64,000 bases of DNA from Sedimentisphaerales bacterium (lineage in GTDB: Bacteria; Planctomycetota; Phycisphaerae; Sedimentisphaerales; SM23-30): NCBI GenBank assembly GCA_963666285.1, contig OY762711.1. One strand, given 5' to 3'. Shown here piece after piece: positions 27,198 to 55,364 of the stretch. The translations under genes were made by a program, and so were the position numbers. Under the pieces are notes generated by a model that worked only from the letters and a program-made list of their open reading frames with translations, searched no databases and was not told the DNA's origin. Positions within the stretch are counted from its first letter, which is position 1. Each line of letters starts with the position of its first letter.

Positions 27198-27377
27198 TTT
27201 ACTTTTGCAGTTTTTAAGTTGCAAAAATCGCCTAAAAGGGCCTTCCTGCAACGCTTATTTTTAAACAAAGCGTGAGACGATAGTCGAACACCTGAATTTT
27301 TCACTTTTCATTATTCATTTTTCACTTAATTGGCTCTGTTCTGGCCTTTGCGTGTAATGTTGAACAGTCAAAATTGC
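27198..27377 (+). repeat. Dispersed structured intergenic element, copy A (candidate ncRNA or non-autonomous element)
   Basis: Shares the 5' block (..GCAGTTTTT..AATCGCCT.AAAGGGCCTTC.TGCA) and the 3' block GGCCTTTGCGTGTA.TGTTGAA.AGT with 45940-46137 and 55185-55364. Confidence 0.85.
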
Positions 27378-27420
27378 TCTAGGTTCAAATGATTATAACA
27401 CTCTGCAAAACGTAAGTACA

Positions 27421-27460
27421 ATAAATATAAGGCTCAACATACAATCAAATATGTTGAGCC
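27421..27460 (-). terminator. Likely terminator for the 27567-28538 gene
   Basis: Perfect 11-bp stem GGCTCAACATA/TATGTTGAGCC, followed by a T-rich run on the minus strand. Confidence 0.6.
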
Positions 27461-27517
27461 CTGTATAAATTACTTTGTAATATTTAAGTGAATTTTTGCG
27501 TAAGCCTTTAAATTAAG

Positions 27518-27537
27518 GTCCCGATGTATATCGGGAC
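27518..27537. repeat. Short REP-like palindrome
   Basis: GTCCCGAT-gtat-ATCGGGAC. Confidence 0.55.
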
Positions 27538-27566
27538 AAACTTCTTTACCTTTTTTATTTTACACT

Positions 27567-28538
27567 TTACTCTTTATTTACCATCCACTCCGAAGCCAGC
27601 ACCGCAAAGTCTGCCAGGTTTACGACACAGTCGTTACCGCCAAGATCAGCCGCCAGCGGACACGGCAGCATATCAGAACTTTCCAGCCATTGGTTAGTCA
27701 TTACCTGCAAGTCATTTATGCCGACCTCACAATCATTATCCGCCAGGTCGCCCTTGTATTTACAGCTGTTAACTGAGAAACTGCCTTCAGCTTTTATCGT
27801 ACCAACAACCGTCATATCAATCTGAACTTCATAGCCTTCTTCCTCATCAGCCTGCGTCAGCATTGTCTGGCTCATATCTATTGGTATTATCAGCTCAACG
27901 TGATAATAATCCAGGTTGCCGATAGTATAATCATAGCTGACTGTCAGGCTCCCTTGAGCGTCAACAGTAGTAGGAGAGCTCGGCTCTGTTCCATAGTCCA
28001 TGTTCTGGTCAAACATGCCGCTTGCCAGGCCTGTACCGTAAATTGTTGTTGTTCCTTGGTTAACTACTGCATAATGCTCACTCACTTCGAATGCGGTCCC
28101 TGTGACGGTGCCAAGCCCCGGCATAAATGTGCCCGGGTACCCGGCAATATCGCTATTGGTCACCGTAATACCTCCCAATGCTCCGTAATCAAAAACAAAC
28201 TCCGTATCGCTCATTGCCACCTCGCCGCCGTTAAACGCCAGTGAGCCGACAGCCGCGTTTTTTGTATCATCAAAATCAATTATCATTCCGGCATTGAAAT
28301 ATCCCGATACTGTTGCACTGTCTGAATCCGAATTGCCTATATCAACCTGGATATCTCCAAAAATAGTTGATACTGTCACATAACCGGACGTACTGATTGT
28401 TGCGTCAAAAGTATTAATGTTTTGTTCTGGCGGCGAAATATCAAGCGTAACAAAAACATTTTTAGCTTCTGTCGTTCCTGCCGCAACTGGCAGTATGCAT
28501 AGTAACATCATCCTGAAAAAAGACTTACCTGTCTTCAT
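27567..28538 (-). CDS. Secreted protein with C-terminal dockerin-like domain
   Basis: Signal peptide; GDLADNDCEVGINDLQVMTNQWL / ADLGGNDCVVNLADFAVLASEW. Confidence 0.8.
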   Translation of the reverse strand: MKTGKSFFRMMLLCILPVAAGTTEAKNVFVTLDISPPEQNINTFDATISTSGYVTVSTIFGDIQVDIGNSDSDSATVSGYFNAGMIIDFDDTKNAAVGSLAFNGGEVAMSDTEFVFDYGALGGITVTNSDIAGYPGTFMPGLGTVTGTAFEVSEHYAVVNQGTTTIYGTGLASGMFDQNMDYGTEPSSPTTVDAQGSLTVSYDYTIGNLDYYHVELIIPIDMSQTMLTQADEEEGYEVQIDMTVVGTIKAEGSFSVNSCKYKGDLADNDCEVGINDLQVMTNQWLESSDMLPCPLAADLGGNDCVVNLADFAVLASEWMVNKE

Positions 28539-29040
28539 TAGTAATTTTCTCTTTCTCCGGATTATCTCCGGATCTTTCGGTTTGTGCTTCCCGGTTCTTT
28601 TCCGATTAAAGCATGTACATTTACATTATTCCTCAGGCCATAAAGAAAAACAACTATAAATGCCTCCCGATTGCCGCAGTATATCATACCCTGTTACTAT
28701 AGTGAATATTATCAAAATAGGTAATTTTGGCAAAGCAAAAAAGTGATAAAATAGCAAATACTAGGTAAAAAGATAATTCTTAACGATTGTAATGACTAGA
28801 TTCAATCTTGCATTTTATAATTGTCTGTATTTTTTGACCGGAAAATGTCACTATTTATGTGATTGTGGTCAATATTATGTCGAATATATACTATTATCAT
28901 TCAAAACGTTGTTTTTTATGTGTCGTTTTCACTTATAACGTTCATAAAATATTACAATATATATAATTGCAACGATCATAAAAGGAACCAACATGTGCGT
29001 CAGCTTTTGAAAGGTAGCGTTAGCGACACCTTCTTTACAA

Positions 29041-29090
29041 TTTTTATTTTACACTTTACACTTTCTTAGGTGCGGCTTGTCCGCCCTGAG
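29041..29090 (+). repeat. Dispersed heptamer-tract plus hairpin element, copy 2
   Basis: Near-identical to 18479-18508; followed by a GCGG-cttgt-CCGC hairpin. Confidence 0.7.
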
Positions 29091-29203
29091 ATCATCTCCT
29101 GTATTGTTTATTGTTGTAAATGGCTGATAAGTATGTATGATTGACATAAGCTGTTTCAGATAAATATTTTAATATAGGTCTGAAGGAATGGAATTATTGC
29201 GAA

Positions 29204-31543
29204 ATGAATAGAATTAAGTATCTTTTTATAATATCTGTGCTCTGTAGTTTCTTTTTTATTTTCAGCTGCAAAGACAAATCCTCTGCGGTCGATACTCAGG
29301 GTAGTTCTGATGCTGAAACCGCCGCTGCTGTTCAGCAGGAATGGCATTTTACCGGCTCTGAAAGCTGCAAGGAATGTCATCATAAATTCCACGAGCTTTG
29401 GGCCACCTCACGCCACGGCAATTCATTTAATATCGTAACTGACGAATTTGCAAAGGCTAACCTGCCGCCTCATGATGATTTTATCGAAATTGAAGGTGCA
29501 AAATATAGAGCTGATGTAGAAAACAAAATTATTATCGAAGAAACCGACCAGGGCACCAATACCTATCCGATGAAATATGCCGTCGGCGGCAAAAATGTAT
29601 TTTACCTTATTACCGAACTCGAAGGCGGCAAGATGCAGACTCTGCCTTTGGCATATGACCTGTTACTCAAGCGATGGTATGATATGGCCAAAAGCGGTGT
29701 CAGGCATTCTCATGAGTTTGACGATGCTCCTTATCACTGGAAGGATTACCCATATACCTTTAATTCAAGGTGTTACGGTTGTCATGTGAGCCAGTATTCA
29801 CAGAATTACGACTTTGAGAATGATTCATACAGCACAACCTGGAAAGAGCCGGGCATTAACTGCGAATCTTGTCATGGACCGGCCAGTGAGCACAACAGGG
29901 TATGCAGGGAGGCAATGAAGAATGACAAACAGCCTGAAGACTTAAAGATGATTATGGTGGTACAGTCCCATGGCTCTACCCCGGAACAGGTTGACTCTGC
30001 CTGCTCCAGCTGTCATACCAAGGGCGGCGCTATCACACCTAGCTATATTCCCGGCGAGGCCTACTACGATCATTATGACCTCGCAACTTATGAAAATATT
30101 GACTATTACCCTGATGGTCGCGACCTCGGCGAAAATTATACCTTCACTTCATGGAGCCTCAGCCCTTGTGCCCGAAACAGTAAACTCGACTGTATGTACT
30201 GCCACACTTCCAGCGGACGCTACCGCTTCCATGAAGATGCTAAGGCTAACGATGCCTGTGTCGAGTGCCATAAGGGCAAAGTTGACAATATAGTTAAGCA
30301 TAGCCGCCACAAGGAAGGTGCCACCAAATGTATTCAATGTCATATGCCTATGACTCGTTTTGGTAATATGATGAGAAGCGACCATTCCATGCGGCCGCCT
30401 ATGCCAAGTGCCACTATTCGTTATAAGTCGCCCAATGCCTGTAACATATGTCATAAGGATAAAAGTCCGGAATGGGCCGACAAAAAGGTCAGACGCTGGC
30501 ATAAAGAAGATTACCAGCAAGCTACCCTGGAAATTGCTGACCTCATCCAGCAGGCACGCCATGGCAAATGGGAAAATCTGCCGAAAATGCTGGAATATAT
30601 CAAGGAACCCGCTAACAGCGAAATATTTTCCAACTCGCTTGTAAGGCTATTGGAAAATTGTAGCGATGATAGAAAATGGCCGGTCCTGATTGATATTCTT
30701 AACAAGGATAAATCGCCGCTTGTTCGTTCCAGCGCTGCTTATGCTCTAAACACATATCTTACCGAGCAGTCGTTATTAGAGTTATTTAAGGCTTCTCGCG
30801 ATAAATTCCGGATTGTACGTGTTAAGGCCGGTATTACGCTTTCGCAGGTTCCTGACCAGTATATTCCTGATGAATATAAAGAATCTGTCAAGAAGGCTGT
30901 TGATGAATATCTCGTTTCGCTGGATGCCAGGCAGGATGATGGTACTTCCCATTACAACAAAGGTAATTACTATATGGGGATCGGCCAGTATCAGAAAGCA
31001 ATTGAGTGCTTTGAAAATTCTTCTCGATTGCAGTATGACTTTATCCCGCCGCTGGTGAATGTTGCCATGGCATATAATGCTCTTGACCAAAACGAAAAAG
31101 CCCTGGAGTCTCTGCAAAAAGCGATTAAACTTGATCCGAAAAATAGTGCCGCTCATTATAATTCAGCATTGCTGCTGGCCGAAGTGAATCAGCTTGATAA
31201 AGCAGAAGATGAGTTTCGTGAAGTACTTAAGCTGCAGCCCACAAATACCGGTGCTTTATATAACCTGGGGATTCTGGTGGCTGATAAATCTCCTGAAGCT
31301 TCGCTGGAATACTGCAAAAAAGCATATGAAATTGAACCTGCTGATATTAAACATGGGTATACCTATGCTTTCTATCTGGATAAATCCGGACAGGCTGATG
31401 CTGCGATAGCTATTCTGGAAAAGATGGTTGACAATAATGTATATGATCAGAATACTGTTAAGTTAATGGTTGATATATATAACAGGGCCAATCAGACAGA
31501 AAAGATAAACCGGCTTATGAACAAAATCCGCAACAATAATTAA
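29204..31543 (+). CDS. Octaheme cytochrome c lipoprotein with HEAT and TPR repeats
   Basis: Lipobox FIFSC; eight CxxCH (CKECH, CYGCH, CESCH, CSSCH, CMYCH, CVECH, CIQCH, CNICH); SPLVRSSAA HEAT repeat; C-terminal TPRs. Confidence 0.9.
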   Translation: MNRIKYLFIISVLCSFFFIFSCKDKSSAVDTQGSSDAETAAAVQQEWHFTGSESCKECHHKFHELWATSRHGNSFNIVTDEFAKANLPPHDDFIEIEGAKYRADVENKIIIEETDQGTNTYPMKYAVGGKNVFYLITELEGGKMQTLPLAYDLLLKRWYDMAKSGVRHSHEFDDAPYHWKDYPYTFNSRCYGCHVSQYSQNYDFENDSYSTTWKEPGINCESCHGPASEHNRVCREAMKNDKQPEDLKMIMVVQSHGSTPEQVDSACSSCHTKGGAITPSYIPGEAYYDHYDLATYENIDYYPDGRDLGENYTFTSWSLSPCARNSKLDCMYCHTSSGRYRFHEDAKANDACVECHKGKVDNIVKHSRHKEGATKCIQCHMPMTRFGNMMRSDHSMRPPMPSATIRYKSPNACNICHKDKSPEWADKKVRRWHKEDYQQATLEIADLIQQARHGKWENLPKMLEYIKEPANSEIFSNSLVRLLENCSDDRKWPVLIDILNKDKSPLVRSSAAYALNTYLTEQSLLELFKASRDKFRIVRVKAGITLSQVPDQYIPDEYKESVKKAVDEYLVSLDARQDDGTSHYNKGNYYMGIGQYQKAIECFENSSRLQYDFIPPLVNVAMAYNALDQNEKALESLQKAIKLDPKNSAAHYNSALLLAEVNQLDKAEDEFREVLKLQPTNTGALYNLGILVADKSPEASLEYCKKAYEIEPADIKHGYTYAFYLDKSGQADAAIAILEKMVDNNVYDQNTVKLMVDIYNRANQTEKINRLMNKIRNNN

Positions 31544-31573
31544 CTCAAGGTTAATGTATTTGGGTGTAATACT

Positions 31574-32467
31574 ATGTCAATTAAAAGCTCAATAATGGAA
31601 TACGTTCGGCAGGGTGCTGATTCTTTAGATCCTGCACTGCGTCAGAAAGTTAGAGATTTTACTGTCAGCCAGATTACCCGCGAGGCTGGTTTTGCCGATC
31701 GCGATGGTAATGTTGATTTGTATTATACGGTTTTCGGGCTCCAGCTGCTGGATGCTTTCAATGTGGAGATTCCATATGAGCGAGTTGCCGGATTTTTACA
31801 AAGATTTTACCCTTATATCGAGGAAATGGATTTATTGGAAGTGGCCTCCCTTGGACGATGTGCAGGGTGTCTGCCTCTGGAATTCAAGCATAGTGTTATA
31901 AGTGACCGTATTGCTGAACGGATAGCTGCTTTTGTCTCTCAGGACGGCGGATACGGCATGGCCGAAGGTGATGAAAAGGGCAGTATTTATGCTGCGTTTC
32001 TTGCTTTAGGGGCTCTGCAGGATATGGCGGTAACATTGACTAACCCCAGGGGCATGGTCGATTCAATCGAATCTCTTGCATTAAAAGACGGTTCGTATGT
32101 GAATGATAATAAAATGCCCGTTGGGCTGGTACCTTCCACTGCTGCTGCGATAGTTATGCTTGATATCCTGGTTGGCAAAGTCACTCAGGCTTCCATAGAT
32201 TGGTTAAAGAGCTGTTATTGTCCTGAAGGAGGCATGGCGGCTGTTCCCGGCGGCACTCCTGACCTTCTCAGTACTGGGGTAGGTTTGTTTACCCTGGCAT
32301 ATACCAAAACTGATATCGAAAATATGAAGTATGATTGCAGCAGGTTTGTTGATGCTTTAATGCAGGATAATGGCGGATTTTGCGGTAGTAGCGATGATAA
32401 AACTACTGATTGTGAATATACTTATTACGGCCTTTTGACAAAAGGTATTGTTAATTCTAACAGTTGA
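31574..32467 (+). CDS. Prenyltransferase/squalene-oxidase repeat (alpha-alpha barrel) protein
   Basis: GFADRDGNVDLYYTVFGL, DGGYG, PDLLSTG, GGFCG..DCEYTYYGL. Confidence 0.8.
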   Translation: MSIKSSIMEYVRQGADSLDPALRQKVRDFTVSQITREAGFADRDGNVDLYYTVFGLQLLDAFNVEIPYERVAGFLQRFYPYIEEMDLLEVASLGRCAGCLPLEFKHSVISDRIAERIAAFVSQDGGYGMAEGDEKGSIYAAFLALGALQDMAVTLTNPRGMVDSIESLALKDGSYVNDNKMPVGLVPSTAAAIVMLDILVGKVTQASIDWLKSCYCPEGGMAAVPGGTPDLLSTGVGLFTLAYTKTDIENMKYDCSRFVDALMQDNGGFCGSSDDKTTDCEYTYYGLLTKGIVNSNS

Positions 32468-32477
32468 ATTTTGAAAA

Positions 32478-35057: not shown

Positions 35058-35115
35058 CACCCTAAGTAATCCGGCTGGGCATTTTCTATAAAGGCGGGTA
35101 TTGGTTTTGAGTCAA

Positions 35116-35976
35116 TTAAAGATCGCCGCTATTATCACGTTTAGGCAGCAGAAATTCTGCTTCCGGCCATAGCTTAAATACATCTTCTTTATCGGATGCT
35201 ATAATAGTATCAAAATCTCGATCGAGATTATCTTTCTGGTATATTAACTGGTGGTCTTTACTGTAATATATATTCTGTGTCATTCCCCTGAAATTAGCTT
35301 GAACTGCATAACCGTCTGGGTGCTCAGATCTGACATATGATGGGATAGTTTCCAGTTCACCGGGGCTTACTGGAAAGTTAATTACCTCAATTCCAGCTAG
35401 TAATGTAAAATCCAGTTGAGTGTTGTACCGCTGAACTCCTATCGAGGAATATATGTCCAGCATGAAAGGAGGAATAAGATTAGCATGGAAGCTTATTGAC
35501 GAAGCGTCAACAATCGTGCCGTTGATAATGTATTTCATACCTTCATCCGGATTGTAGGTTATGTCTAATGCTTTTGGTGTTCCATTGTCACTGATTCTTT
35601 CGTGTTGGCTCCATGTATTTGTATTGTTTGATATGCGCCATTCATTTATGCCGTAGTATTTATGGTCTGTCAGTCGGGTTATCTCTATACCCATTAGATA
35701 GTTATCTTTCCAGTAGTGCTCATAATACTTGTAGCCGACCGGCTCATCGTTATTATTGTACAGGATATAATATTGAGAATAATTCTCAAATGGGATAAAT
35801 TGATCCAGCCCGGACTCTCTTATCGATGAAAGTAATTTTTTAACGTTTGATGCACCCTGTTTGGTCGAGACATACCATTGTGCCAGCCCAAGCGTTATCA
35901 GCAGCGTAACTGCAAGGGCGATAGTTGATTTTGTCGGACTGTATTGCCCGGGATTTGAGTCAGTTCTTTTGAACAT
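35116..35976 (-). CDS. Hypothetical protein with N-terminal membrane anchor
   Basis: 286-aa ORF with a single TM segment. Confidence 0.7.
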   Translation of the reverse strand: MFKRTDSNPGQYSPTKSTIALAVTLLITLGLAQWYVSTKQGASNVKKLLSSIRESGLDQFIPFENYSQYYILYNNNDEPVGYKYYEHYWKDNYLMGIEITRLTDHKYYGINEWRISNNTNTWSQHERISDNGTPKALDITYNPDEGMKYIINGTIVDASSISFHANLIPPFMLDIYSSIGVQRYNTQLDFTLLAGIEVINFPVSPGELETIPSYVRSEHPDGYAVQANFRGMTQNIYYSKDHQLIYQKDNLDRDFDTIIASDKEDVFKLWPEAEFLLPKRDNSGDL

Positions 35977-36048
35977 AATAGTATTGTTTGTTCTGGAAGC
36001 TTTAGGTTTTAGTTATTACCTTATCAAAGTGCAAGGTATATCTATAAT

Positions 36049-36084
36049 AAAAAAAGCCGCCTCATAGCGAGACGAGGCGGCTTT
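36049..36084 (-). terminator. Intrinsic terminator after the SSS transporter
   Basis: AAAGCCGCCTC-loop-GAGGCGGCTTT with a U7 tail on the minus strand. Confidence 0.8.
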
Positions 36085-36108
36085 GAACTTTTTAATTACT
36101 TCTGTCTA

Positions 36109-38541: not shown

Positions 38542-38977
38542 TACGCAACTCCTAACAACAATAATTAATTTGTTTTAATGGCTTTTTATGAGATATAAAA
38601 GCCATTATGACTACAATACTATCTATATTTAAATGATTATGCAATAATACTTATATATGGCCGAAATGCTAGTTTTTTTTCAAAAATAATACCCGGGCCA
38701 ATTGATGAATGTAAAAAATATATTAAAAAAAATACAAAATTGACATATGGCTGTAAGTCTATATTTTAATTGCAGTTATGTGGACGTTAGTCGGGCTCGG
38801 TCCGATATAAAAGGTGTATATTATAAAAAAAAGATTTTCTGTATGAAATAGCGGCTGCGACCGATATTGACATAGCCTGACGACAAAGGTTGAACAACGG
38901 AATGGTCAGACCACAGGCGACAAACTATGGATTTCCGGATAAAACGTGTAAGCAGAAAACACCCTTACCCGGGACGT

Positions 38978-39017
38978 GAGACCGACTATTCTGGCCGATG
39001 TCGGTCTCGTTTTTTTT
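38978..39017 (+). terminator. Intrinsic terminator upstream of ubiE (end of a leader or sRNA)
   Basis: GAGACCGAC-loop-GTCGGTCTC then G and a long T run. Confidence 0.8.
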
Positions 39018-39076
39018 AAAGCAATATATAGGATACAGACAAAGAGAATATCTTTTATTTTCAACAAATAAACCTT

Positions 39077-43172: not shown

Positions 43173-43394
43173 TGTGACCAATCTGTTGTTTAGAAAAGTA
43201 TTGAATTTCAAGCATGATTCGCAAGTTAATATGAAACCTTTATTTACAGCATTTACTATCACTCATTTTTTAAAGTATGCAATTCTTTAAGTTTTTACTA
43301 TGATTTATGTATGATTTACTGAATATAAAATATTTGTTTTCATATTTATAATTTTTTTCTATGTTTGATTGTAACTTCGATTGGAGGCTTAACT

Positions 43395-44564: not shown

Positions 44565-44658
44565 AACTTAAAAACGGCCTTAAATTCAATTTTATTATAT
44601 GTAAGTTGTTTTTTGAGATAAACAGAGAAGAACATTGTTTAACTAAGGAGATATTTAT

Positions 44659-45651
44659 ATGGCAAGACCAGTAACACTATTTACAGGGCAATGGGCAGAC
44701 CTTACTCTTGATGAATTGGCAGCAAAGATGGCCGAGATCGGTTATAACGGTCTTGAGCTTGCTTGTTGGGGTGACCATATGGATGTTTTTCAGGCTGCCG
44801 AAGACCTGGATTATTGTAAAAAGCAGAAAGCGATTCTTGACAAATATGGATTGAAACTTTTTGCTATCAGTAATCATTTAGCCGGTCAGCTGGTATGCGA
44901 TTTGAATAATGACAGTCGCTCAGATATGTTTGCACCGGAAGATTGTGCCGGCGATGCTGAGAAAAAACGGGCCTGGGCTGTTGATGCCATGAAAGCTACT
45001 GCTAAAGCTGCTAAAAATCTCGGTGTTAGTGTCGTAAATGGTTTTACCGGGTCCAGTATCTGGCATCTTCTATACAGTTTTCCGCCGGTAAGTGATCAAA
45101 TGATTGATGATGGTTTCAAGTTCTTTGCCGATATGTGGAACCCGATCTTTGATGTTTTTGATGAATGTGGCGTTAAATTTGCCCTGGAAGTTCATCCTAC
45201 TGAGATTGCATTTGACATTGTTACTGCTAAGAGAGCTTTGGCTGCTGTTAATAATCGTGAGACATTCGGCTTTAATTTCGATCCTAGTCATCTTCACTGG
45301 CAGATGGTGTGCCCGGTGCGGTTCATACAGGAATTTTCTGACCGGATCTATCATGTACACATGAAAGATGCTGCTCGTCAGTTGGATGGTTATACCGGCA
45401 TTCTTGGCTCTCACTTGAATTTTGGCCAGCCGAATCGCGGTTGGGACTTCCGTTCGCTTGGACGCGGCGGAGTTGATTTTGAAGAAATTATTCGCATGTT
45501 GAACTTGATTGGCTATGCCGGTCCGCTTTCCGTTGAATGGGAAGATTGCGGCATGGAAAGGTTCCATGGTGCCAAAGAAGCATGTGACTTCGTTAAGAAA
45601 ATGGATTTTGCGCCTTCAAATGTTCAGTTTGATGCAGCGTTTGATAAATAG
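44659..45651 (+). CDS. Sugar phosphate isomerase/epimerase (xylose-isomerase-like TIM barrel)
   Basis: TLFTGQWADL, GLELACWGDH, FALEVHPTE, NFDPSH, HVHMKD, LSVEWED. Confidence 0.9.
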   Translation: MARPVTLFTGQWADLTLDELAAKMAEIGYNGLELACWGDHMDVFQAAEDLDYCKKQKAILDKYGLKLFAISNHLAGQLVCDLNNDSRSDMFAPEDCAGDAEKKRAWAVDAMKATAKAAKNLGVSVVNGFTGSSIWHLLYSFPPVSDQMIDDGFKFFADMWNPIFDVFDECGVKFALEVHPTEIAFDIVTAKRALAAVNNRETFGFNFDPSHLHWQMVCPVRFIQEFSDRIYHVHMKDAARQLDGYTGILGSHLNFGQPNRGWDFRSLGRGGVDFEEIIRMLNLIGYAGPLSVEWEDCGMERFHGAKEACDFVKKMDFAPSNVQFDAAFDK

Positions 45652-45729
45652 TAAATATTTTTAAGCAAATATTTACCAGAAGTAATTTTAGTATATTATA
45701 ATTTTAGTAAAGTAATTGCAAAGGTATCT

Positions 45730-45765
45730 GCTGATGGAAAATTCGTTTTCCATCAGCTGTTTTCT
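45730..45765 (+). terminator. Terminator-like hairpin with UUCG loop
   Basis: GCTGATGGAAAA-TTCG-TTTTCCATCAGC perfect 12-bp stem, then TGTTTTCT. Confidence 0.7.
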
Positions 45766-45939
45766 ACAAAAAGCAAACCTCACAAAATGCCTGCCAGTTG
45801 TAAAGAGAATTAGTAATAAGCAATATGTTTATTGCATTTAGTATAAATATTAATTCTTATGCCTTATATTTTATTAATGCAATAATTGCGTATGCATAAT
45901 AGTAACTGCTTATTTATTGTAGTAGTTATTTAACAGTTA

Positions 45940-46137
45940 ACTTTCGCAGTTTTTGAGCTGTAATAACGAAGTGCCTTTGGGTTAATCGCCTGAAAGGGCC
46001 TTCTGCAGCACTTTGAATTAAATATACTTTCGAGAAATAGCTCGGAAATACAATTAAATGTAATGTTTTTTCATTCACAAGGCCTTGTTCCGGCCTTTGC
46101 GTGTAATGTTGAACAGTAAAAAGTGCGATACCGCACT
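45940..46137 (+). repeat. Dispersed structured intergenic element, copy B
   Basis: Conserved blocks as in copies A and C; ~20-nt insertion in the 5' domain; ends in an AGTGCG-atac-CGCACT hairpin. Confidence 0.85.
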
Positions 46138-46158
46138 AACATATAGTAGATATTTAAC

Positions 46159-47469
46159 ATGAGTAAAAACAAAATAACTAGAAGAGAGTTTTTCTGTAGA
46201 GCAGCAGGTTATGCAGCTGGGGCTGCAATTTTCCCAACTATACTTCCCGTTTCTGCTTTAGGTGGCGACGATAATGTGTTGCCCAGCAATCGTCTGCAAG
46301 GTGCCCAGCTTGGTTGCGGCGGCATGGGAACCGGCAATATGCGTGGTTTTCTGAATTATAAGGAATTGCAGATTGTAGCTGTTTGTGATGTCGATAGAAA
46401 ACATGCTGAGCGGGCAAAGCGATACGTAGACGATAAATATGGCAATTCTGATTGTCGTATATACAGTGACTATCGTGAGATGATCGAAAAAGAAAGTCTC
46501 GATATTATCAGTCAGGCCTTACCGGATCACTGGCATGCAAAAAGTGCTGTTGATTGTGCTCGTAAAGGCATAGATATGTACGGCGAGAAACCGCTGTCAA
46601 GAACCATTGCCGAAGGACGCGCGATATGTGACGCCGTCAAAAGACATGGCATTGTCTGGCAGACTGGCAGTTGGCAAAGATCTGTAGCCAATTTCCGACG
46701 GGTTTGTGAGTTAATTCGGAACGGGCGTCTGGGTAAAATCTCTCATGTGGAAGTTGGTTTACCGGACGGAAGTCCTGGACCGGATAGAAAATTATTGCCG
46801 GTACCGGATTATTTCGACTGGGATATGTGGCTTGGACCGGCTCCTTGGCGGCCGTACCAGGATTTTGGAGAGGGGAGCCCTCATTACTGGTGGAGACATT
46901 TTCTGGACTATTCCGGCGGTAAGCTTACCGACTGGGTTGGCCATCATGCTGATATTGCTCACTGGGCACTTGGTTTTGATGAGACCGGACCTGTTGAGAT
47001 AGAAGGTAAAGGTTCGTATCCGACCAAAGGTATTTATGATGTGCCTTTTGAATATGATTTTGTCTGTACCTATGCTGATAAAACAACGATCAGGGTTGCC
47101 AATAAAGGTCTTTTGCCAAAAGGGCAGGGCGTTTGCTTCTATGGTGAGAACGGCTGGATATTTATTTCACGTTCAGTACTTGAAGCTTCCGACCCGAAAA
47201 TATTGCAGGAAAAAATTGGGGCAAATGAGATTAAATTATATAAAAGCGGAGATCATAAACGTAATTTTATAGATTGTGTAAAAAGCAGAAAAGAGACTGT
47301 TACCCCGGCTGAGACTGCTCATCGTTCGATTAGTGTCGGACTGCTCGGCGAAATTGCGATGCTGACAGGCAGGAAACTTAAGTGGAATCCTGAAAAAGAA
47401 TTGTTCGTGGGTGACCAGACAGCAAACAGATATTTAATGAGGTCGTATCGTAGCGGCTGGACTCTTTAA
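46159..47469 (+). CDS. Tat-exported Gfo/Idh/MocA oxidoreductase
   Basis: TRREFF; LGCGGMG, PDHWH, YGEKP, DWDMWLGPAP. Confidence 0.9.
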   Translation: MSKNKITRREFFCRAAGYAAGAAIFPTILPVSALGGDDNVLPSNRLQGAQLGCGGMGTGNMRGFLNYKELQIVAVCDVDRKHAERAKRYVDDKYGNSDCRIYSDYREMIEKESLDIISQALPDHWHAKSAVDCARKGIDMYGEKPLSRTIAEGRAICDAVKRHGIVWQTGSWQRSVANFRRVCELIRNGRLGKISHVEVGLPDGSPGPDRKLLPVPDYFDWDMWLGPAPWRPYQDFGEGSPHYWWRHFLDYSGGKLTDWVGHHADIAHWALGFDETGPVEIEGKGSYPTKGIYDVPFEYDFVCTYADKTTIRVANKGLLPKGQGVCFYGENGWIFISRSVLEASDPKILQEKIGANEIKLYKSGDHKRNFIDCVKSRKETVTPAETAHRSISVGLLGEIAMLTGRKLKWNPEKELFVGDQTANRYLMRSYRSGWTL

Positions 47470-47523
47470 AATATAAGGTTTAATCGAAGAAGGTTTAGAT
47501 AAAAACTAAAAAGAGGTGGCATA

Positions 47524-48864
47524 ATGTCTGAAAAGAAATTAAACAGGCGGTCATTTATCAAGAAAGCATCTGCGGTTTCGGCTGTGGCTGGTCTTCCATT
47601 TATTATTCCATCATCAGTTCTGGGAAAGGATGGAGCTGTTTCGCCAAGTAATCGGATTACTATTGCTCAAATTGGTTGTGGTGGCATGGGAACCGGCAAT
47701 ATGAACAGCTTTCTCAATTTAAATAATAATGCTTTGCAATTTATTTCTGTTTGTGATGTTGCTAAAAACCATGCGGCTAATGCTAAAAAGTCAATTGACA
47801 ATAAGTATGGAAACAGTTCCTGTAGAATTTACGGTGATTTCCGGGAAATGCTGGAAAAGGAAGATCTCAATTGTGTAAGCCATGCCTTGCCCGATCACTG
47901 GCATGCTCCTGTGGCTCTTGCCTGTGCTCGTAAGGGGATCGATATGTATGGCGAAAAGCCTTTCGCCCGATCTATTAAAGAAGGGCGGGCGATGTGCAAT
48001 GCTATCACTCAGAATAATCTTATCTGGCAGACCGGCAGCTGGCAAAGATCGGTTGCTCATTTTCATAAAGGGGCTGAATTAGTCATCAATGGCAGAATTG
48101 GCAAGGTTGAATATGTAGAAGTCGGCTTGCCTAATGGCGATGCCGGTGGCGGACCGCAGGTTTGCCTGGAGCCTGCTCCTTCTGGTTTTGACTGGGATAT
48201 GTGGCTTGGGCCGGCTCCTTATCGGCCTGCCCAGAATTTCAACGGTAAACTGAGAAAAGATGGTGGTAACGGACCCCACTGGGACTGGCGATGGATCCTG
48301 GATTATTCCGGCGGGCAAATGACCGATTGGGCCGGACATCATATTGACATTGCCCATTGGGGACTCGGCCTGGAACGCACGGGACCTGTTGAAATAGAAG
48401 GTAAAGGCAAATACGCTACCGGCGGGATCTATGATGTGCCTTTTGCTTACGATTTCAATTGTAAATATGCCAATGGTGTTACTATGCGGGTTGCAAATGC
48501 AGCTGCATTAACTCATGGAATGGGAGCCTGCTGGTATGGTGAAAAAGGCTGGATACATGTTAGCCGGGGTGGATTGAATGCTTCGGATCCAAAAATATTA
48601 AAAGAGAAGATCGGTCCTGGTGAGACATTGCTTTATAAGAGCTACAATCATCATGAGAATTTTATTGATTGTGTTAAAACCCGTAAGGAAACTATTGCCC
48701 CTTCCGAAGTAGCGCATCGTTCTATCAGTGTCGGATTGCTCGGTGAAATTGCCATGCAGACCGGTCGGAAGTTGAAATGGGACCCTGCTAAAGAAGTTTT
48801 CGTTGGCGATGCTGGGGCTAACAGTATGCTCATGCGGCAATATCGCAGCGGCTGGGGAATATAG
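47524..48864 (+). CDS. Tat-exported Gfo/Idh/MocA oxidoreductase (tandem paralog)
   Basis: NRRSFIK; same motifs; closely similar to the upstream gene. Confidence 0.9.
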   Translation: MSEKKLNRRSFIKKASAVSAVAGLPFIIPSSVLGKDGAVSPSNRITIAQIGCGGMGTGNMNSFLNLNNNALQFISVCDVAKNHAANAKKSIDNKYGNSSCRIYGDFREMLEKEDLNCVSHALPDHWHAPVALACARKGIDMYGEKPFARSIKEGRAMCNAITQNNLIWQTGSWQRSVAHFHKGAELVINGRIGKVEYVEVGLPNGDAGGGPQVCLEPAPSGFDWDMWLGPAPYRPAQNFNGKLRKDGGNGPHWDWRWILDYSGGQMTDWAGHHIDIAHWGLGLERTGPVEIEGKGKYATGGIYDVPFAYDFNCKYANGVTMRVANAAALTHGMGACWYGEKGWIHVSRGGLNASDPKILKEKIGPGETLLYKSYNHHENFIDCVKTRKETIAPSEVAHRSISVGLLGEIAMQTGRKLKWDPAKEVFVGDAGANSMLMRQYRSGWGI

Positions 48865-48948
48865 ATTTAGTTTATAAATGTTTGTATCTAAAATAAAAAA
48901 AAATAACGTTTTGCTTTGCAGAATATACATATAAGAAAAGTTAATATT

Positions 48949-51900
48949 ATGAATAAGATAAAAAGAATTATAAGTCTGGCGGTTTTGATAGTTTTTATTT
49001 CATCTCTTAATGTATTTGCGGTCACAGAAGATGAGGTTGCAAAAATGCGGGAAGCTATTCCGGCCAAACCGGTAGTTAAACCTGCTAAAGCCCGCAAAAT
49101 GCTGATGTTTGATTTGTGTATTGGTTTCAAACACAGCAGCATTCCATATTGGGCTCAGGCAATTGATATTATGGGAGAAAAAACCGGAGCCTTTTCTGTC
49201 GAGCATAGCACGGATATGACAGTGTTTTCTGATGAAAATCTGAAACAATACGATGTGATTTGTTTTAATAATACTACAAGTCTTGATCCGACTCCGTCCC
49301 AGAGAGAAGCCATATTGAATTTTATCAGGTCCGGTAAAGGTATCGTTGGAATTCACGCTGCCGCTGATAATTTTAATAACTGGGAAGAGGGCAAACGTCT
49401 GATGGGTAATATTTTTACCGGTCATCCCTGGACTTCAGGCGGGACCTGGGCTTTTAAGATTACTGAACCGGATCATCCGCTGACAAAGTCTTTTGAAGGT
49501 AAGGATTTCAAGCTAAACGACGAAATTTACCGTACCGACCCGCCTTATTATGACAGGACCAGGCAGCGGGTACTGGTAAGTCTTGACCTGTCGGACCCTG
49601 CCACCAAAAATGCCGGCGGGGTAAAACCTTCTGATATAGATACAGGCATAACATGGATTAAACGAGTTGGTAAAGGCCGTTTGTTCTATTGTTCTCTTGG
49701 CCATCAGCATCATGTTACCTGGAACAAGCCTATTTTAGAGCATTATCTTGCGGGTATTCAGTATGCGATTGGTGATCTGAAAGTGGATGATAGTATTCCC
49801 GTTGTTGAAAGTGCCAGATCTGCTGAAGCTATTGAACTATTGAATATGGTTAAACAGTACGACTGGGATAAAAATCAGGAACCATTGCACAAAATGACCC
49901 TGTTTGTTAGAGATTGCCTGAACAATCCGATTGATGCAAAAATGGTAGAGACAAAACTTCTGGAAGTCTTAAATTCTGATGTCAACATTGCTGTTAAAGA
50001 TTATATCTGTCGCCAGCTAGCTGTAGTTGGCTCCGAGGTTTCGGTTCCACTGTTGGCAGGTATGCTGTCTGCTCCTGAAACCAGTGATATAGCAAGATAT
50101 GCCCTGGAGAGAATAAATTCAGGAGATGTAGATGTTGTTTTGTTTGAAGCATTAAAAAATACTGAGAACGATAAAATCAAGTCCGGCGTAATTGCTTCTT
50201 TGGGGGTGCGTAAATATACAGACGCTATTGCTGAGATAAAGAAATATTTGAATAGTGATAACGAAAATCTTGCTGTTTCTGCTGTGTATGCTTTGAGTGT
50301 GATTGGTAATGAAGCGGCGGCTGACGCTTTACTTGAGGCACAGCCTAAAGTTGCTAAAGAACGTGTCTTTGATGCGTTACTTGCCTGCGGCCAGAAAATC
50401 GCTCACACTGGAGATGTTGAAAAAGCTTCTAAAATATACAGTAAGGTATATCGTCTGAGCAAAGATGACACTATTCGTAAGGGTGCTTTTATCGGCTTGA
50501 TAAAAACTGATAAGGCAAATTCTTCTGCTATGATTAAAGGTGCTATCGAAGGCGATGATGTTGCAATGCAAAAAGCTGCTATCCAGACTCTGTCTCAGGT
50601 CGAAGATAAAAGCCTGTTGCTGACTATAGCTGGTTCGTTAAAGAGTTTTTCCGATGATGCCAAGGTCCTTATTATGGCTGCTTTAGCAGAGAACTCCAGC
50701 AGGGTTGGAGAAGTTCAGGTACTTGAATTTATCAAAAACAAGTCACAGGCTGTTAGAATTGCCGCATACGATGCTCTGGCGAAAATTGGTACTGTTAAGT
50801 CTGTCAGCAGCCTGGCTGCTGCCGGTGCCGAGATCCGGGACAGGAAAGAAAAAGATGCTGCCTTGGAAGCTCTTTTTTCAATGCCGGGCAAAGCTGTTGA
50901 TAATGAAATATTGAAACTGATCATTTCTGAAGATAATGCCGGAAAAGAAATGGTTGTTATTGAATTGATAAATGCTGCGGTAGCCCGTCAGGTGGAAGGC
51001 CTTTCTGATGTGTTATTTACTGCCACCCAGAGTTCAAGCCGTCGTGTTGTTGTTGCCGCTGTAAAGTCGCTCATGACTACTGCCGGTGCTGAAGATGTGA
51101 CCGCTATGGTTGAACTGCTGGCTGATAAACCTTCTACCAATACAGAGAATGCTTTAACCGTTCTGGCTGATCGACTGGATGATAAAGCAGAGCTGATAGC
51201 AAAGATAGCTGCCAGGTATAAGTCTCTTAATAACGCTCAGGCAAAGAGCTCGTTCTTGAAGGTTATGGGCAGGCTTGGCGGTGATGAAATAGCGGTAATC
51301 CTGAAGGCTGAATATGCTTCCTCTGATGCGGCACTCAAAGAGGCTGCCTTCAGAGCTATGACTGAATGGCCGGGAGCTGACTTTATTGCTAATATGAAGA
51401 GCCTTGCTGTCAGTGGCAAAGATGAAAAAACCAGGATCCTTGCTTTACGCGGTTACCTGAAGATGATTCGGGAGCATGGTGGAAAAGACAGGGGCAAAAA
51501 AATCATCGATACTTTTAAGATGGCGGAGCGAGAAGAAGAAAAACGCATGGTTATTGGAGCGATGGGTGATTTTGCCAGTAAGGATGTGTTTGAGTTCCTT
51601 ATAAATAATATGAACAATTCAAACTTTAAGGCAGAAGCTGAGATTAGTATTGTTAATGTTGCAAAAGTTCTGGCTGGCCGCTGTCCTGAAGTGGTTCTGC
51701 ACACTATGCAGCAGATAATTGATAGCAATGCCGGTGATAATGTCAAGAAGGGGGCCCGGGAAGTTATTGATAAAATCAATAAGATGGGGGCGTTCATCGT
51801 TGACTGGAAAATATCCAAAGCTTATTCTGACAATGGCATGAAATGCAAAGAGCTGTTTAACAGGGCTTTTGCTCCGGAAAGAAATGAAGGAAGCTGGAAG

Positions 51901-52251
51901 CAGGCAATAGTTTCTGATGATGGCAAAATTGACATGGACCAGGCCGAAGCAGGCGACAGTCTGGTGGCTTATCTGAAAACTGTGATTATCAGTTCTGTTG
52001 ATCAGGAAGTAACCTTGTCTATGGGCAGTGATGATGGTATGAAGGTTTGGTTAAACGATGAAATAGTACATGCTAATAATGTTGAAAGGGGACTTACCAG
52101 GGGTTCGGACAAGGCGAAAGTTAAACTGAAGAAAGGTAGAAATGAGCTGTTTGTCAAAATAACACAGAATTCCGGTGGTTGGGCGTTTTGCCTGGAAATT
52201 CAACAGGCTGACGGAAAAAGAGCTCAAAATATTGAAGTGGACTCAGAGTAA
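48949..52251 (+). CDS. Secreted ThuA-like domain + HEAT repeats + C-terminal beta-sandwich
   Basis: Signal peptide; GFKHSSIP, GIHAAAD, DEIY, GRLFYCSLGH (ThuA); HEAT repeats; GSDDGMKVWLND..LKKGRNELFVKI. Confidence 0.85.
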   Translation: MNKIKRIISLAVLIVFISSLNVFAVTEDEVAKMREAIPAKPVVKPAKARKMLMFDLCIGFKHSSIPYWAQAIDIMGEKTGAFSVEHSTDMTVFSDENLKQYDVICFNNTTSLDPTPSQREAILNFIRSGKGIVGIHAAADNFNNWEEGKRLMGNIFTGHPWTSGGTWAFKITEPDHPLTKSFEGKDFKLNDEIYRTDPPYYDRTRQRVLVSLDLSDPATKNAGGVKPSDIDTGITWIKRVGKGRLFYCSLGHQHHVTWNKPILEHYLAGIQYAIGDLKVDDSIPVVESARSAEAIELLNMVKQYDWDKNQEPLHKMTLFVRDCLNNPIDAKMVETKLLEVLNSDVNIAVKDYICRQLAVVGSEVSVPLLAGMLSAPETSDIARYALERINSGDVDVVLFEALKNTENDKIKSGVIASLGVRKYTDAIAEIKKYLNSDNENLAVSAVYALSVIGNEAAADALLEAQPKVAKERVFDALLACGQKIAHTGDVEKASKIYSKVYRLSKDDTIRKGAFIGLIKTDKANSSAMIKGAIEGDDVAMQKAAIQTLSQVEDKSLLLTIAGSLKSFSDDAKVLIMAALAENSSRVGEVQVLEFIKNKSQAVRIAAYDALAKIGTVKSVSSLAAAGAEIRDRKEKDAALEALFSMPGKAVDNEILKLIISEDNAGKEMVVIELINAAVARQVEGLSDVLFTATQSSSRRVVVAAVKSLMTTAGAEDVTAMVELLADKPSTNTENALTVLADRLDDKAELIAKIAARYKSLNNAQAKSSFLKVMGRLGGDEIAVILKAEYASSDAALKEAAFRAMTEWPGADFIANMKSLAVSGKDEKTRILALRGYLKMIREHGGKDRGKKIIDTFKMAEREEEKRMVIGAMGDFASKDVFEFLINNMNNSNFKAEAEISIVNVAKVLAGRCPEVVLHTMQQIIDSNAGDNVKKGAREVIDKINKMGAFIVDWKISKAYSDNGMKCKELFNRAFAPERNEGSWKQAIVSDDGKIDMDQAEAGDSLVAYLKTVIISSVDQEVTLSMGSDDGMKVWLNDEIVHANNVERGLTRGSDKAKVKLKKGRNELFVKITQNSGGWAFCLEIQQADGKRAQNIEVDSE

Positions 52252-52379
52252 AAAATAGTTTATTATTGTTCAAATTGACAGTTATTAGTTCTGTTAATAC
52301 TGAATATCAACAAGTAACAAATAAATATCAATTTTATAATAGTGCAATTTTAGCAGAGTTAGAAATGTGAGGTTTTGAA

Positions 52380-53726
52380 ATGGAAAAAGGTATGAATCGC
52401 AGAAATTTTATTAAATCAGCATCATTCGGAGCTGCTGCGTTCAGTATTGTGCCTTCCACTGTGTTTGGTGCCGAGGCTCCCAGTAATAAGCTTAATATCG
52501 CAGGTGTTGGTGTTGGCGGCATGGGCCACGGCAATCTGAGAGCAATGAAAAGTGAAAATATCATTGCCCTTTGCGATGTGGACTGGAAAAAAGCCGGTGG
52601 TACTTTTAAGGAATATCCTGACGCTAAACAGTTCAAGGATTACAGGGTTATGCTTGATCAAATGGGTGACCAGATTGACGCTGTTATGGTTGCGACACCT
52701 GATCATACTCACGCTTGTGTGGCTTTGGCCGCCATGGAACGCGGTAAACATGTCTATGTCCAAAAACCGCTTACCAAATCTGTTTACGAAGCTAGATTGC
52801 TCACCCAGGCTGCTCATAAATATAATGTTATTACCCAGATGGGTAACCAGGGACACAGCGGAGAAGGTATTCGCCTGATCTGCGAATGGATCTGGGATGG
52901 TGCTATTGGTGATATCCGTGAAGTGCATGCCTGGACCAACAGGCCTATCTGGCCGCAGGGGCTTAAACGGCCTACTGATACTCCTCCTGTTCCGGATTAT
53001 CTGGACTGGGATTTATTCTTAGGTCCGGTTGAAGGTGTTCCATACAATCCTGTTTATCATCCATGGAACTGGCGTGCCTGGACTGACTTTGGTACCGGGG
53101 CCCTGGGCGATATGGCATGCCATATCCTCGACCCTGTATTCTGGGCGTTAAAACTGAAGTATGCCTCTAGTGTTCAGGGTTCGTACGCTTACGGCTATTA
53201 TGAAGGAAAGAGAATCGGTTTCGAAGATACCTTCCCGGTTGCTTCAAAAATCCATCTCGAATATCCTGCCAGGGAATCTATGCCGGCTGTTAAAGTCAAT
53301 TGGTATGATGGCGGAATTCTTCCTGAAAGACCTGCTGAACTGGAATCCGGCAGAAGAATGGGTGATTCCGACGGCGGTGTAATTTTCGTAGGCGACAAGG
53401 GCAAGATAATGTGCGGCTGCTATGGAAAGAACCCGCAGATTATCCCTTATAGCGAAATGAAAAAGTATAACAGACCTCCGAAGACATTAGAGCGGGTTGA
53501 AACCAGCCATGAGATGAACTGGATCGAAGCTATCAAGAATAATAAACAGGCCAGTTCAAACTTTGATTATGCCGGTCCGTTTACTGAAATGGTATTGATG
53601 GGTAATCTCAGCCTCTATAAACCAGGTCATAAACTGGAATGGGACGGCGAAAAGATGGAAGTCACCAATTACCCTGAATTAAATGCATTAGTTAACCCTG
53701 CCAGGAAAGCCGGCTGGGAACTATAA
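52380..53726 (+). CDS. Tat-exported Gfo/Idh/MocA oxidoreductase (BT2158-like)
   Basis: NRRNFIK; APSNKLNIAGVGVGGMG, TPDHTH, HVYVQKP, TQMGNQGHS, GDMACH. Confidence 0.9.
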   Translation: MEKGMNRRNFIKSASFGAAAFSIVPSTVFGAEAPSNKLNIAGVGVGGMGHGNLRAMKSENIIALCDVDWKKAGGTFKEYPDAKQFKDYRVMLDQMGDQIDAVMVATPDHTHACVALAAMERGKHVYVQKPLTKSVYEARLLTQAAHKYNVITQMGNQGHSGEGIRLICEWIWDGAIGDIREVHAWTNRPIWPQGLKRPTDTPPVPDYLDWDLFLGPVEGVPYNPVYHPWNWRAWTDFGTGALGDMACHILDPVFWALKLKYASSVQGSYAYGYYEGKRIGFEDTFPVASKIHLEYPARESMPAVKVNWYDGGILPERPAELESGRRMGDSDGGVIFVGDKGKIMCGCYGKNPQIIPYSEMKKYNRPPKTLERVETSHEMNWIEAIKNNKQASSNFDYAGPFTEMVLMGNLSLYKPGHKLEWDGEKMEVTNYPELNALVNPARKAGWEL

Positions 53727-53761
53727 ATAAATTTTGTAACATTTGTTTGAGGAAAAGAAGT

Positions 53762-55168
53762 ATGAAACGTTTATTTTCATTATTGCTTGTATTATTGTCA
53801 GCTCAATTGCTTTGTGCCGACAGCCTGAAACAGCACCCGCAGCCTTCTGCTTATGATGGTTGGCGATTGGGTGTTCAATGCTGGTCATTCAACAGGTTCA
53901 CTATGTTTGAAGCTATTGATAAAACCAGGGAACTTGGCTTGAACTATATTCAGGCTTTTCCCGGCCAGAAAGTATCTAAGGATCTGGACATGGGTTTTGG
54001 CCCTGATCTTAACGCCGAGCAGCGTGCCATGGTTAAGGCAAAGCTTGCTGATGCCAATATACAGGTTCTCGCCTTTGGCGTTACCGGCATATCCAAAAAC
54101 GAGGTCGAGGCTAGAAAGCTTTTTGATTTTGCCAAAGATATGGGCATTAAAATGATCGCTTCCGAACCGGAATTTGACCAGTTTGATTTGCTTGACAAAC
54201 TTTGCCAGGAATATCAGATTAAGCTTGGCATCCACAACCATCCTAATCCTAACCGGTACTGGAATCCGGATACAGTATTGAAAATGTGCCAGGGCCGCAG
54301 TAAATGGATTGGTGCCTGTACTGATGTTGGCCACTGGGTTCGCAGCGGGCTTGATCCTGTAGAATGCCTGAAAAAGCTGGAAGGCAGAATTCATGATGTG
54401 CATACCAAGGAAATTGAAGATGGACATGATGTAGTCTGGGGTACCGGACAGGGCCGCATGAAAGGTATTCTTAAAGAGTTGAAACGTCAGGGCTACAAAG
54501 GTACTTTTACCGTTGAATATGAATATAACTGGGATAATAACGTACCTGAAATTCGTAAATCTGCTGAATATTTTGATACAGTTTCTTCTGAACTGTTCCC
54601 CGGCGGCTGGCATAATCTGTTTGCTGCTGACCTGTCAAATGCTGACTACAAGGAAGGCAGCTGGAAGATGGCTGATGGTGTCCTGGAAAGGACCGGCAGC
54701 GGTGATGTCTGGACCAAGGGCAAATATTCTGATTACATCTTGGATTTCGATTTCAAATTGGATAAAGGTACAAATAGCGGTGTTTTCCTGAGGGCGGCAG
54801 AACATACATGGCTTCCTTGGCCGGAAGTACAGGTTGAAGATTCGTTTGGTAAAGGTATCAACAGGCATCTTTGCGGTGGTATTTATGATATCTCTGCTCC
54901 TAAGGTGAACTCTGTTAAGCAGCCTGGCCAGTGGAACCATATGTCCATTATGGCAGATGGCAGTGATATCAGCGTCGTCCTTAACGGCAAGCTGGTAACT
55001 GATATCGACCTTAACGACTGGACCACGGCTGGCAAAAATCCTGACGGCAGCGATAATAAATTCAAAAATATTGCTTATAAAGATCTGCCTAGAACCGGCT
55101 GGATTGGCTTCCAGGATCATGGCTTTGTTGTCTGGTATCGCAATGTAAAAATTAAAGAGTTAAATTAG
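53762..55168 (+). CDS. Secreted fusion: TIM-barrel isomerase/epimerase-like + DUF1080 (3-keto-glycoside lyase-like)
   Basis: LGIHNH, DVGHW, VHTKE, VEYE; then NSGVFLR, EVQVED, GQWNHMSI, GWIGFQDHG..VWYRNVKI. Confidence 0.88.
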   Translation: MKRLFSLLLVLLSAQLLCADSLKQHPQPSAYDGWRLGVQCWSFNRFTMFEAIDKTRELGLNYIQAFPGQKVSKDLDMGFGPDLNAEQRAMVKAKLADANIQVLAFGVTGISKNEVEARKLFDFAKDMGIKMIASEPEFDQFDLLDKLCQEYQIKLGIHNHPNPNRYWNPDTVLKMCQGRSKWIGACTDVGHWVRSGLDPVECLKKLEGRIHDVHTKEIEDGHDVVWGTGQGRMKGILKELKRQGYKGTFTVEYEYNWDNNVPEIRKSAEYFDTVSSELFPGGWHNLFAADLSNADYKEGSWKMADGVLERTGSGDVWTKGKYSDYILDFDFKLDKGTNSGVFLRAAEHTWLPWPEVQVEDSFGKGINRHLCGGIYDISAPKVNSVKQPGQWNHMSIMADGSDISVVLNGKLVTDIDLNDWTTAGKNPDGSDNKFKNIAYKDLPRTGWIGFQDHGFVVWYRNVKIKELN

Positions 55169-55184
55169 TAAGTAATTATTGTGA

Positions 55185-55364
55185 TTTACTTTCGCAGTTT
55201 TTAAGTTGCAGAAATCGCCTAAAAGGGCCTTCCTGCAGCACTTTGAATTAAATATACTTTTGAGAATCAGCTTGTAAATACAATTAAGTGTATAGTTTTC
55301 ATTCACAAGGCCCCTATAGGCCTTTGCGTGTAGTGTTGAATAGTCAAAAGTGCGAAATCGCACT
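55185..55364 (+). repeat. Dispersed structured intergenic element, copy C
   Basis: Conserved blocks; TTTCGCAGTTTT pairs with AAAAGTGCGAAA; ends in an AGTGCG-aaat-CGCACT hairpin. Confidence 0.85.

Follow-up and report, generated by a model that had tools for sequence, protein, structure and literature searches.

What are the three related intergenic segments of about 180-200 nucleotides that lie dispersed in a 64,000-nucleotide stretch (the window) of contig OY762711.1 from a Sedimentisphaerales bacterium (assembly GCA_963666285.1)? The initial annotation saw in them a three-copy element with covarying stems, possibly a new structured RNA, and left the choice between a ribozyme-like, an intron-like and a non-autonomous element. 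Our analysis indicates, at a probability of roughly 0.87, that the repeat is a non-autonomous DNA transposon, namely a miniature inverted-repeat transposable element (MITE), which is mobilised in trans by a DDE transposase of the IS701 family. The last of the annotated options was right, whereas a structure-conserved RNA is unsupported at the level of the family.

Family size and marks of insertion

The three segments, hereafter copies A, B and C, are homologous, intergenic and close to where they had been annotated, with all quoted motifs in place, and they are retrieved by nhmmer with E-values of 1e-44 to 1e-47. The idea of a three-copy element does not hold, since a profile iterated from them yields 223 matches at E≤1e-3 in the window genome (G000), every one on contig C1; the reversed genome gave 0 matches at this threshold. 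The census comprises 137 full-length matches spanning 137-238 bp and 86 partial ones, part of which are stand-alone internal cassettes rather than element fragments, and the family takes up ~34 kb of intergenic DNA. Inside the window, copies A, B and C are the only matches at this threshold; a weak partial match at ~12820-12875 (E 0.01 in the first-round search) was dropped.

Stacking of the flanks revealed sharp ends. The left end could be anchored in 174 matches; of these, 122 retained the 3' block, and the right terminus could be defined in 115, the seven matches with a 3' block that were set aside from these 115 complete copies including copy A. An exact 5-bp target duplication flanks 53 of the 115, compared with a mean of 1.70 (maximum 7) after shuffling, and 83 have one with at most one mismatch (11.6 in shuffles). 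Duplication lengths of 2, 3 and 4 bp stay at chance level, and ten copies extend to 6 bp. The 53 exact duplications begin with T in 40 cases and end with A in 35. Similarly, 28 of the 41 loci found in other genomes carry an exact 5-bp duplication, where 0.85 would be expected. Three identical 182-bp copies sit at unrelated loci, each with a different duplication, and empty paralogous sites were found for 3/115 copies (97%, 75% and 72% identity; two more matches were self-matches). According to simple in-house calls of open reading frames (ORFs), 134 of the 137 full copies are intergenic, across all four gene contexts (49 sense versus 34 antisense in tandem contexts); 90 are on the leading strand, near the 63% of genes located there. 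No listed ORF of 90 aa and no transposase gene is present inside the copies. The traits by which MITEs are recognised are found together here: a length below 500 bp, imperfect terminal inverted repeats, target-site duplication, multiple copies, intergenic siting and empty sites. It is because of the 5-bp duplications, the intergenic dispersal in either orientation, the identical copies at unrelated sites and the empty sites that we read the repeat as a MITE.

Two copies (G000:C1:5214283 and 1740876) lie inside another repeat, with 34 and 17 empty paralogous matches, respectively. The start of this host repeat resembles the end of a repeated 1.8-kb element carrying a 525-aa ORF, which suggests a second MITE family.

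A resident IS701-family element with related ends

Self-comparison of the genome brought out a 1,427-bp element present in seven near-identical copies, a further copy at 89% identity and a fragment. All eight full copies (1,426-1,427 bp; for instance G000:C1:67161-68587, with one ORF between terminal repeats) have an exact 5-bp duplication, starting with T in five and ending with A in six, a T...A bias similar to that of the repeat. The 430-aa transposase scores 286.5 bits on NF049999 (transpos_IS701_3; cut-off 170), matches Pfam DDE_5 and stays under the cut-off for NF033540. Compared with the terminal repeat of this insertion sequence (IS), the left end of the short element is identical at 16/19 positions and its short-form right end at 13/19. 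The IS701 partnership is proposed because the ends resemble those of a co-resident and recently active IS, the duplication has the same length and the T...A bias is similar; from the shared ends and equal duplication length we infer mobilisation in trans by the resident transposase. In this mechanism, the transposase would bind both ends and cut at the terminal GT...AC, insertion would occur at a 5-bp staggered cut in AT-rich DNA, and host repair would fill in.

The interior also points to this IS. In an end-anchored comparison, the two arms are similar to the right end of the IS, the final transposase codons included, and not to its left end: the score against the right end was unreached by 60 shuffles in 5/10 lineages for the right arm and 2/10 for the left arm, and in 0/10 lineages against the left end. 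A weaker suggestion, likely but not proven from such sequence likeness, is that the element arose by head-to-head (inverted) fusion of two IS right ends, which would account for its overall palindromic layout. Related IS loci from metagenomes have both ends in 69/80 cases, with the same repeat on each and variation mostly at positions 3-6. A search for an autonomous version, in which the ends of the element would flank an ORF, left two candidates among 84 orphan left ends that have a candidate right end within 12 kb; both were rejected, for a weak score or as the end of an IS with its own duplication. In addition, the IS701-family element (L011:239-1666, minus strand) has a stop-free frame of ~474 codons opposite the transposase over nearly its whole length, and internally deleted IS701-type elements with intact terminal repeats occur at ~693 bp (L022/L031, G014) and ~448 bp (L032, G017).

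Internal layout and mosaic copies

The internal layout was established on 59 copies that had passed filters on length, set at 171-201 bp in the pattern search and at 170-200 or 120-260 bp in the script; shorter derivatives (71-98 bp) and a 338-bp one were excluded. A short motif, site A, lies at positions 39-43 and a central CG-N10-CG at ~78-79. In 57 of the copies the inverted partner of site A (site A') comes 50-52 bp before the right end, and 55 copies measure 180-184 bp in total. Between the two arms there is a difference of roughly one helical turn; this would suit sites bound by proteins on double-stranded DNA better than it would an RNA helix. Site A, the central palindrome and site A', symmetric and at fixed spacing, are most likely double-stranded protein-binding sites, and may help to join two ends that are just 180 bp apart. 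The features of the window copies, all on the plus strand, are as follows.

27197-27377: copy A, core-A subtype with an intact left terminal repeat and no right terminal hairpin; left flank TTAAA unmatched on the right
27197-27215: copy A, left terminal inverted repeat, IS701-like
27218-27252: copy A, GTTGCA/TGCAAC stem (27218-23 with 27247-52), enclosing site A AGGGCCT at 27237-27243
27270-27325: copy A, captured cassette that also occurs outside the element; GC-rich small hairpin (27270-27292), then heptamer run (27298-27325)
45931-45935: copy B, left target-site duplication TAACA
45936-46136: copy B, complete, 201 bp; core B, short (S) right end, 19-nt optional insert
45968-45976: copy B, second site-A-like motif GAAGTGCCT, within the optional insert
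45995-46001: copy B, site A AGGGCCT
46028-46047: copy B, central palindrome TTTCG-N10-CGGAA, two inverted cores resembling the terminal-repeat core
46080-46086: copy B, site A' AGGCCTT (consensus AGGCCCT), inverted partner of site A
46123-46136: copy B, right terminal hairpin GTGCG-ATAC-CGCAC, terminator-like on the minus strand
46137-46141: copy B, right target-site duplication TAACA
55184-55363: copy C, complete, 180 bp; core B, S end; flanks TTGTG (55179-83) and TGGTG (55364-68), 4/5 identical
55224-55230: copy C, site A
55308-55314: copy C, site A' AGGCCCC
55350-55363: copy C, right terminal hairpin GTGCG-AAAT-CGCAC

The borders first drawn were approximately right, but missed the exact ends and the 5-bp duplications; they become 27197-~27377 (A), 45936-46136 (B) and 55184-55363 (C). 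The orientations were read correctly, copy A being antisense to its flanking genes and copies B and C sense. Copy A lies antisense just upstream of a gene start. The neighbouring genes are ordinary, with a ketopantoate-reductase-like gene beside A and Gfo/Idh/MocA oxidoreductases after B and C. Two terminator-like hairpins (27429-27462 and 27518-27537) are found directly right of copy A.

The G000 copies are mosaics of a short or long (L) right end, presence or absence of the 19-nt insert and core A or B, all eight combinations being seen. The L form, with 22 extra bases in the loop of the right-end hairpin, accounts for 41/115 complete copies. Since the core A anchor (37/75 matches), a 26-nt insert (59/80) and part of the long loop (23/60) also match outside the element, the latter appears to capture pieces of other repeats. 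Stand-alone cassettes of the core-A kind, made of the hairpin and heptamer run, are found for example at G000:C1 2095402-2095474 and 851269-851341, and a further dispersed repeat with about ten matches (e.g. G000:C1 211115, 3305585 and 4806748) has 16 bases in common with the L-form loop. Derivatives with internal deletions and both ends also exist (G000:C1:374130, 3280195, 4554445 and 4732067; L232 in G003), several of the deletions apparently between two GGCCTT-like direct repeats. Two likenesses noted by eye, an IHF-like site on the minus strand and a loose similarity of the L insert to a dif site, were dropped, lack of conservation across lineages being among the reasons.

RNA structure and covariation

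The annotation recognised no named RNA family, and rightly so: the Rfam 15 scan of the window gives one unrelated match only (E 0.84), and none of 13 related loci scanned has a match on the element above the gathering score. The three local stems, presented as conserved, are not so across the family, being paired in 47%, 72% and 56% of cells (31 copies from several lineages). In G000, 21/4,047 cells are compensatory, 12 of the 21 from one subfamily, and the change rate is 0.070 in paired versus 0.055 in unpaired columns; the paired columns are not the more conserved ones. Among the 113 copies with letters there, the position of the GTTGCA/TGCAAC stem that had been taken as covarying has T-A 89 times, T-G 15 times and C-G once, the C-G pair being private to copy B. 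Pairing between the two ends does exist, but is simply the terminal inverted repeat. Fold z-scores are -0.37, -2.93 and -1.88 for copies A, B and C, respectively. A candidate pseudoknot between a CTGTTC loop and GAACAG was discarded, with 0 compensatory cells in 115 copies.

Stem mismatches had been described as mostly G-U on the plus strand. This is true overall (182 G-U versus 103 A-C cells), but at the level of events it applies to the GTTGCA/TGCAAC stem only (p 9e-6 before correction for six stems; the five others not significant), and tree-based event counts are inflated by mosaic copies. C>T changes exceed G>A in leading-strand copies (74.6 versus 35.2 per 1,000) and not in lagging-strand ones (60.7 versus 64.3). 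Replication-strand bias explains part of the general G-U excess but probably not all of that seen in this stem, and some selection on the plus-strand stem within the genus is possible. Across 15 lineages the stem is unsupported (p 0.08 for plus, 0.06 for minus).

In place of a covariance model, we compared the pairing of each copy's own arms with that of chimeric arms. A long-range inverted repeat between site A and site A', missed initially, pairs in 85% of cells in the 31 copies, with double changes to AGTGCCT-AGGCACT (G008) and CAGGGCT-AGCCCTG (G007) and in an outer A-T pair (G006). It is the only place where own arms outpair chimeric arms (p 0.0002, 15 lineages, both strands equally), such p-values being optimistic as lineages share kinship, and it tops 506 window-pair tests on either strand. 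Its wobbles are five of plus type and eight of minus type. Beyond these sites, own arm pairs have no advantage over chimeric ones (outer p 0.95, inner p 0.13). Among ten lineage consensuses, folding is better on the plus strand in five and on the minus strand in five, and several fold better than shuffles, with z down to -4.9 on the plus strand. Transcripts forming stem-loops are a standard MITE trait according to excerpts of PMC10969869 and PMC2229807, and RNA structure may here be a by-product of flanking transcription reading through.

Weighing the explanations

A series of observations weighs against a MITE moved by IS701-type ends. The L-form right end matches the IS repeat at only 7/19 terminal positions, its core being displaced 22 bp inward, yet 19/41 L-form copies have exact duplications, a near-identical L-form pair has separate duplications, and an exact-duplication L copy occurs in G003; plain terminal-repeat recognition is therefore insufficient. 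Exact-duplication copies in G000 range from 172 to 237 bp and core-A copies are without the central palindrome; as the latter still spread, the fixed layout is helpful at most. Decay of the duplication is unrelated to copy divergence (Spearman 0.08, p 0.41). Without anchoring, the test of homology to the IS right end gave a weak result (3/157 at ≥5 bits versus 0/785 shuffled). Only 12/69 related metagenome ISs have a 5-bp duplication and 42/69 have none, which may be due to chimeric assembly at repeats. The transposase, found in 13/41 genomes, was not found with the G000 query in the carriers G001, G002, G003 and G018, and in two further carrier sets it is present in 1/5 and over the cut-off in 1/5. 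Most transposase-negative carriers are incomplete assemblies, but G003 is a single contig and 98% complete; since the transposase was not found in it, its element copies look like relics. Within the GTTGCA/TGCAAC stem, 42 G-U-type events face 10 A-C-type events in G000, and the same stem reads GTCACAG/CTGTG(A/G)C in G003, with two compensated pairs.

These last points would be expected of a structured non-coding RNA, be it ribozyme-, intron- or SINE-like (short interspersed nuclear element), with the plus-strand fold as functional unit, and the covariation of site A with site A' and the consensuses that fold beyond shuffles go in the same direction. We nevertheless regard such an RNA as highly improbable: no Rfam match was obtained, compensatory cells are few and paired columns change no less than others, the GTTGCA/TGCAAC stem loses support across lineages, the site A/A' wobbles are strand-symmetric, the C>T excess is confined to leading-strand copies, and the loci are fresh insertions, marked by a DDE-type duplication, instead of shared sites. 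Group II introns have GUGYG...AY ends and domains V/VI, and make no target duplication. A derivative of such introns was considered, as the minus strand starts with GTGCG and ends with AC, and rejected on the 5-bp duplications and the lack of an Rfam intron match. Three runs of unknown kind on 44600-56000 gave no joint skipping copy B or C, with contigs only from at most two samples of one study, which is uninformative on absence; contigs have loose ends at 46136, the right border of copy B. A domesticated cis-regulator kept by the host, in which the right hairpin and a T-run would serve as terminator for transcription from the right or the element would carry an outward promoter, is improbable too. 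It would be in line with the copy B hairpin, scored as terminator-like on the minus strand, and with a sigma-70-like pair near the right end in 10/115 copies, as well as with the absence of the hairpin from copy A, given its antisense position just upstream of a gene start. However, antisense copies with an intact hairpin are not depleted in operon-like short gaps of ≤80 bp (7/33 versus 12/44, Fisher p 0.60), copy B is without a promoter-like site, and the putative -10 region is not conserved across lineages.

Within the MITE reading itself, the right end might be read not as a double-stranded repeat but as a hairpin, formed by a folded single strand or a cruciform, a compatible sub-hypothesis that we hold to be rather unlikely. 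The right end folds as GTGCG-N4-CGCAC, and as GTACG-N4-CGTAC in G007 and in a G000 subfamily. Both S and L forms retain the 5-bp stem, in which a compensatory change replaces G-C by A-T in G007 and in 12/115 G000 copies; the L forms of G000, G002 and G003 have different loops, and the IS terminal repeat itself does not fold. A stem would bring the terminal AC beside the internal repeat core at any loop length, and hairpin recognition would thereby account for the L form. Against this, the patterns used for other genomes include the hairpin, so the 100% pairing seen there is partly imposed; an addition of 22 nt is close to two turns of the helix and would equally suit double-stranded binding on the same face; and the complete hairpin end was seen on no autonomous element, although one related IS end (L142) is almost of the hairpin form and four are within one mismatch of it. 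Equally tentative is a "tuned" MITE in which the IS701-type transposase would read the folded end, and thereby tolerate 22 extra bases separating the cut site from the repeat core, together with co-evolving internal enhancer sites at fixed helical spacing on both arms; if true, it would be an end-recognition mode unexpected for this transposase family and a compact substrate to study. The asymmetric hairpin end and the long form offer a cheap and direct test of how IS701-family transposases read ends.

Distribution and other repeats

Outside G000, a two-ended pattern detects 41 loci in eight assemblies, labelled mostly as Sedimentisphaerales/Phycisphaerae, some as Pirellulales or unclassified, and one as Hyphomicrobiaceae. 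The right-end pattern alone is found in 15/251 genomes of the order, including 10/24 of the same family, with two matches in total for its reversed control, and viral contigs gave 0 element matches. The interiors of 15 lineage representatives have a median identity of 50%. The persistence of the repeat spans a bacterial family and extends to genomes in which the transposase was not detected. One copy (L065:515-775) lies ~40 bp upstream of an RNase P RNA gene.

Other repeats of G000 comprise two similar, inverted ~30-kb regions with phage-like proteins (G000:C1:966869-997414 and 2112153-2142580), and repeats with a 443-aa ORF that looks, by eye, like a reverse transcriptase of group II introns (located at G000:C1:910699-912650 and 5395338-5397289, with some eight further pieces of ~740 bp). 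Positions 6631-12755 of the window hold a 904-aa ORF and, after it, a tandem array of five ORFs encoding 215-227 aa; the block recurs at other places in the genome, and contig C3 also carries one of the ORF types.

Comparison with known systems

No published description of this MITE family was found in searches of the open-access literature, supplements aside, and an unpublished ISfinder entry is possible; the MITE is new as a family, with a mildly unusual right end, and is not a new RNA class. The shift from a candidate new RNA to a MITE also illustrates that paralogous transposon copies can mimic RNA covariation.

ISAba11 makes a 5-bp duplication. It belongs to the same IS701 family as the partner proposed here, according to an excerpt of PMC9771954, and is set beside the element by description only. 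With the IS701-family ISs (NF049999), the element has in common the repeat core, the GT...AC ends, the 5-bp duplication and a similar target bias, but it is about one-eighth as long, has no transposase gene, and its interior is only distantly like the IS right end.

Among bacterial MITEs of similar size (176-235 bp for most), compared by description only, excerpts report MaeMITEa-h of Microcystis aeruginosa, with comparable copy numbers for MaeMITEa (240) and MaeMITEb (132) (PMC2779907), Chunjie of Geobacter (PMC10969869) and MITEPye1 of Paracoccus yeei, whose partner IS was assigned by the same terminal-repeat argument (PMC11578231). These excerpts state no IS701 partner, and the term "IS701" is absent from the main text of PMC10969869 as available. 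The CIR repeats of Caulobacter and Brucella are described in an excerpt of PMC2229807 as having a conserved internal motif, a phylogenetically conserved predicted structure, the GANTC methylation motif and no terminal repeats. Our element is likewise a repeat family with an internal motif, but has terminal repeats; because its motif varies by lineage (AGGGCCT, AGTGCCT, AGGGCT), no single methylation site fits it. More generally, prokaryotic MITEs are portrayed in part of PMC10969869 and PMC2229807 as AT-rich intergenic elements of <500 bp with terminal repeats of 4-30 bp and direct repeats that decay with age, moved in trans by a related IS. Small size, terminal repeats, direct repeats and intergenic siting are found here as well. 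Unlike general MITEs, however, this element has a right end that is a hairpin variant and not the mirror of the left, a long form without terminal match, and symmetric internal sites whose spacing stays fixed across genera.

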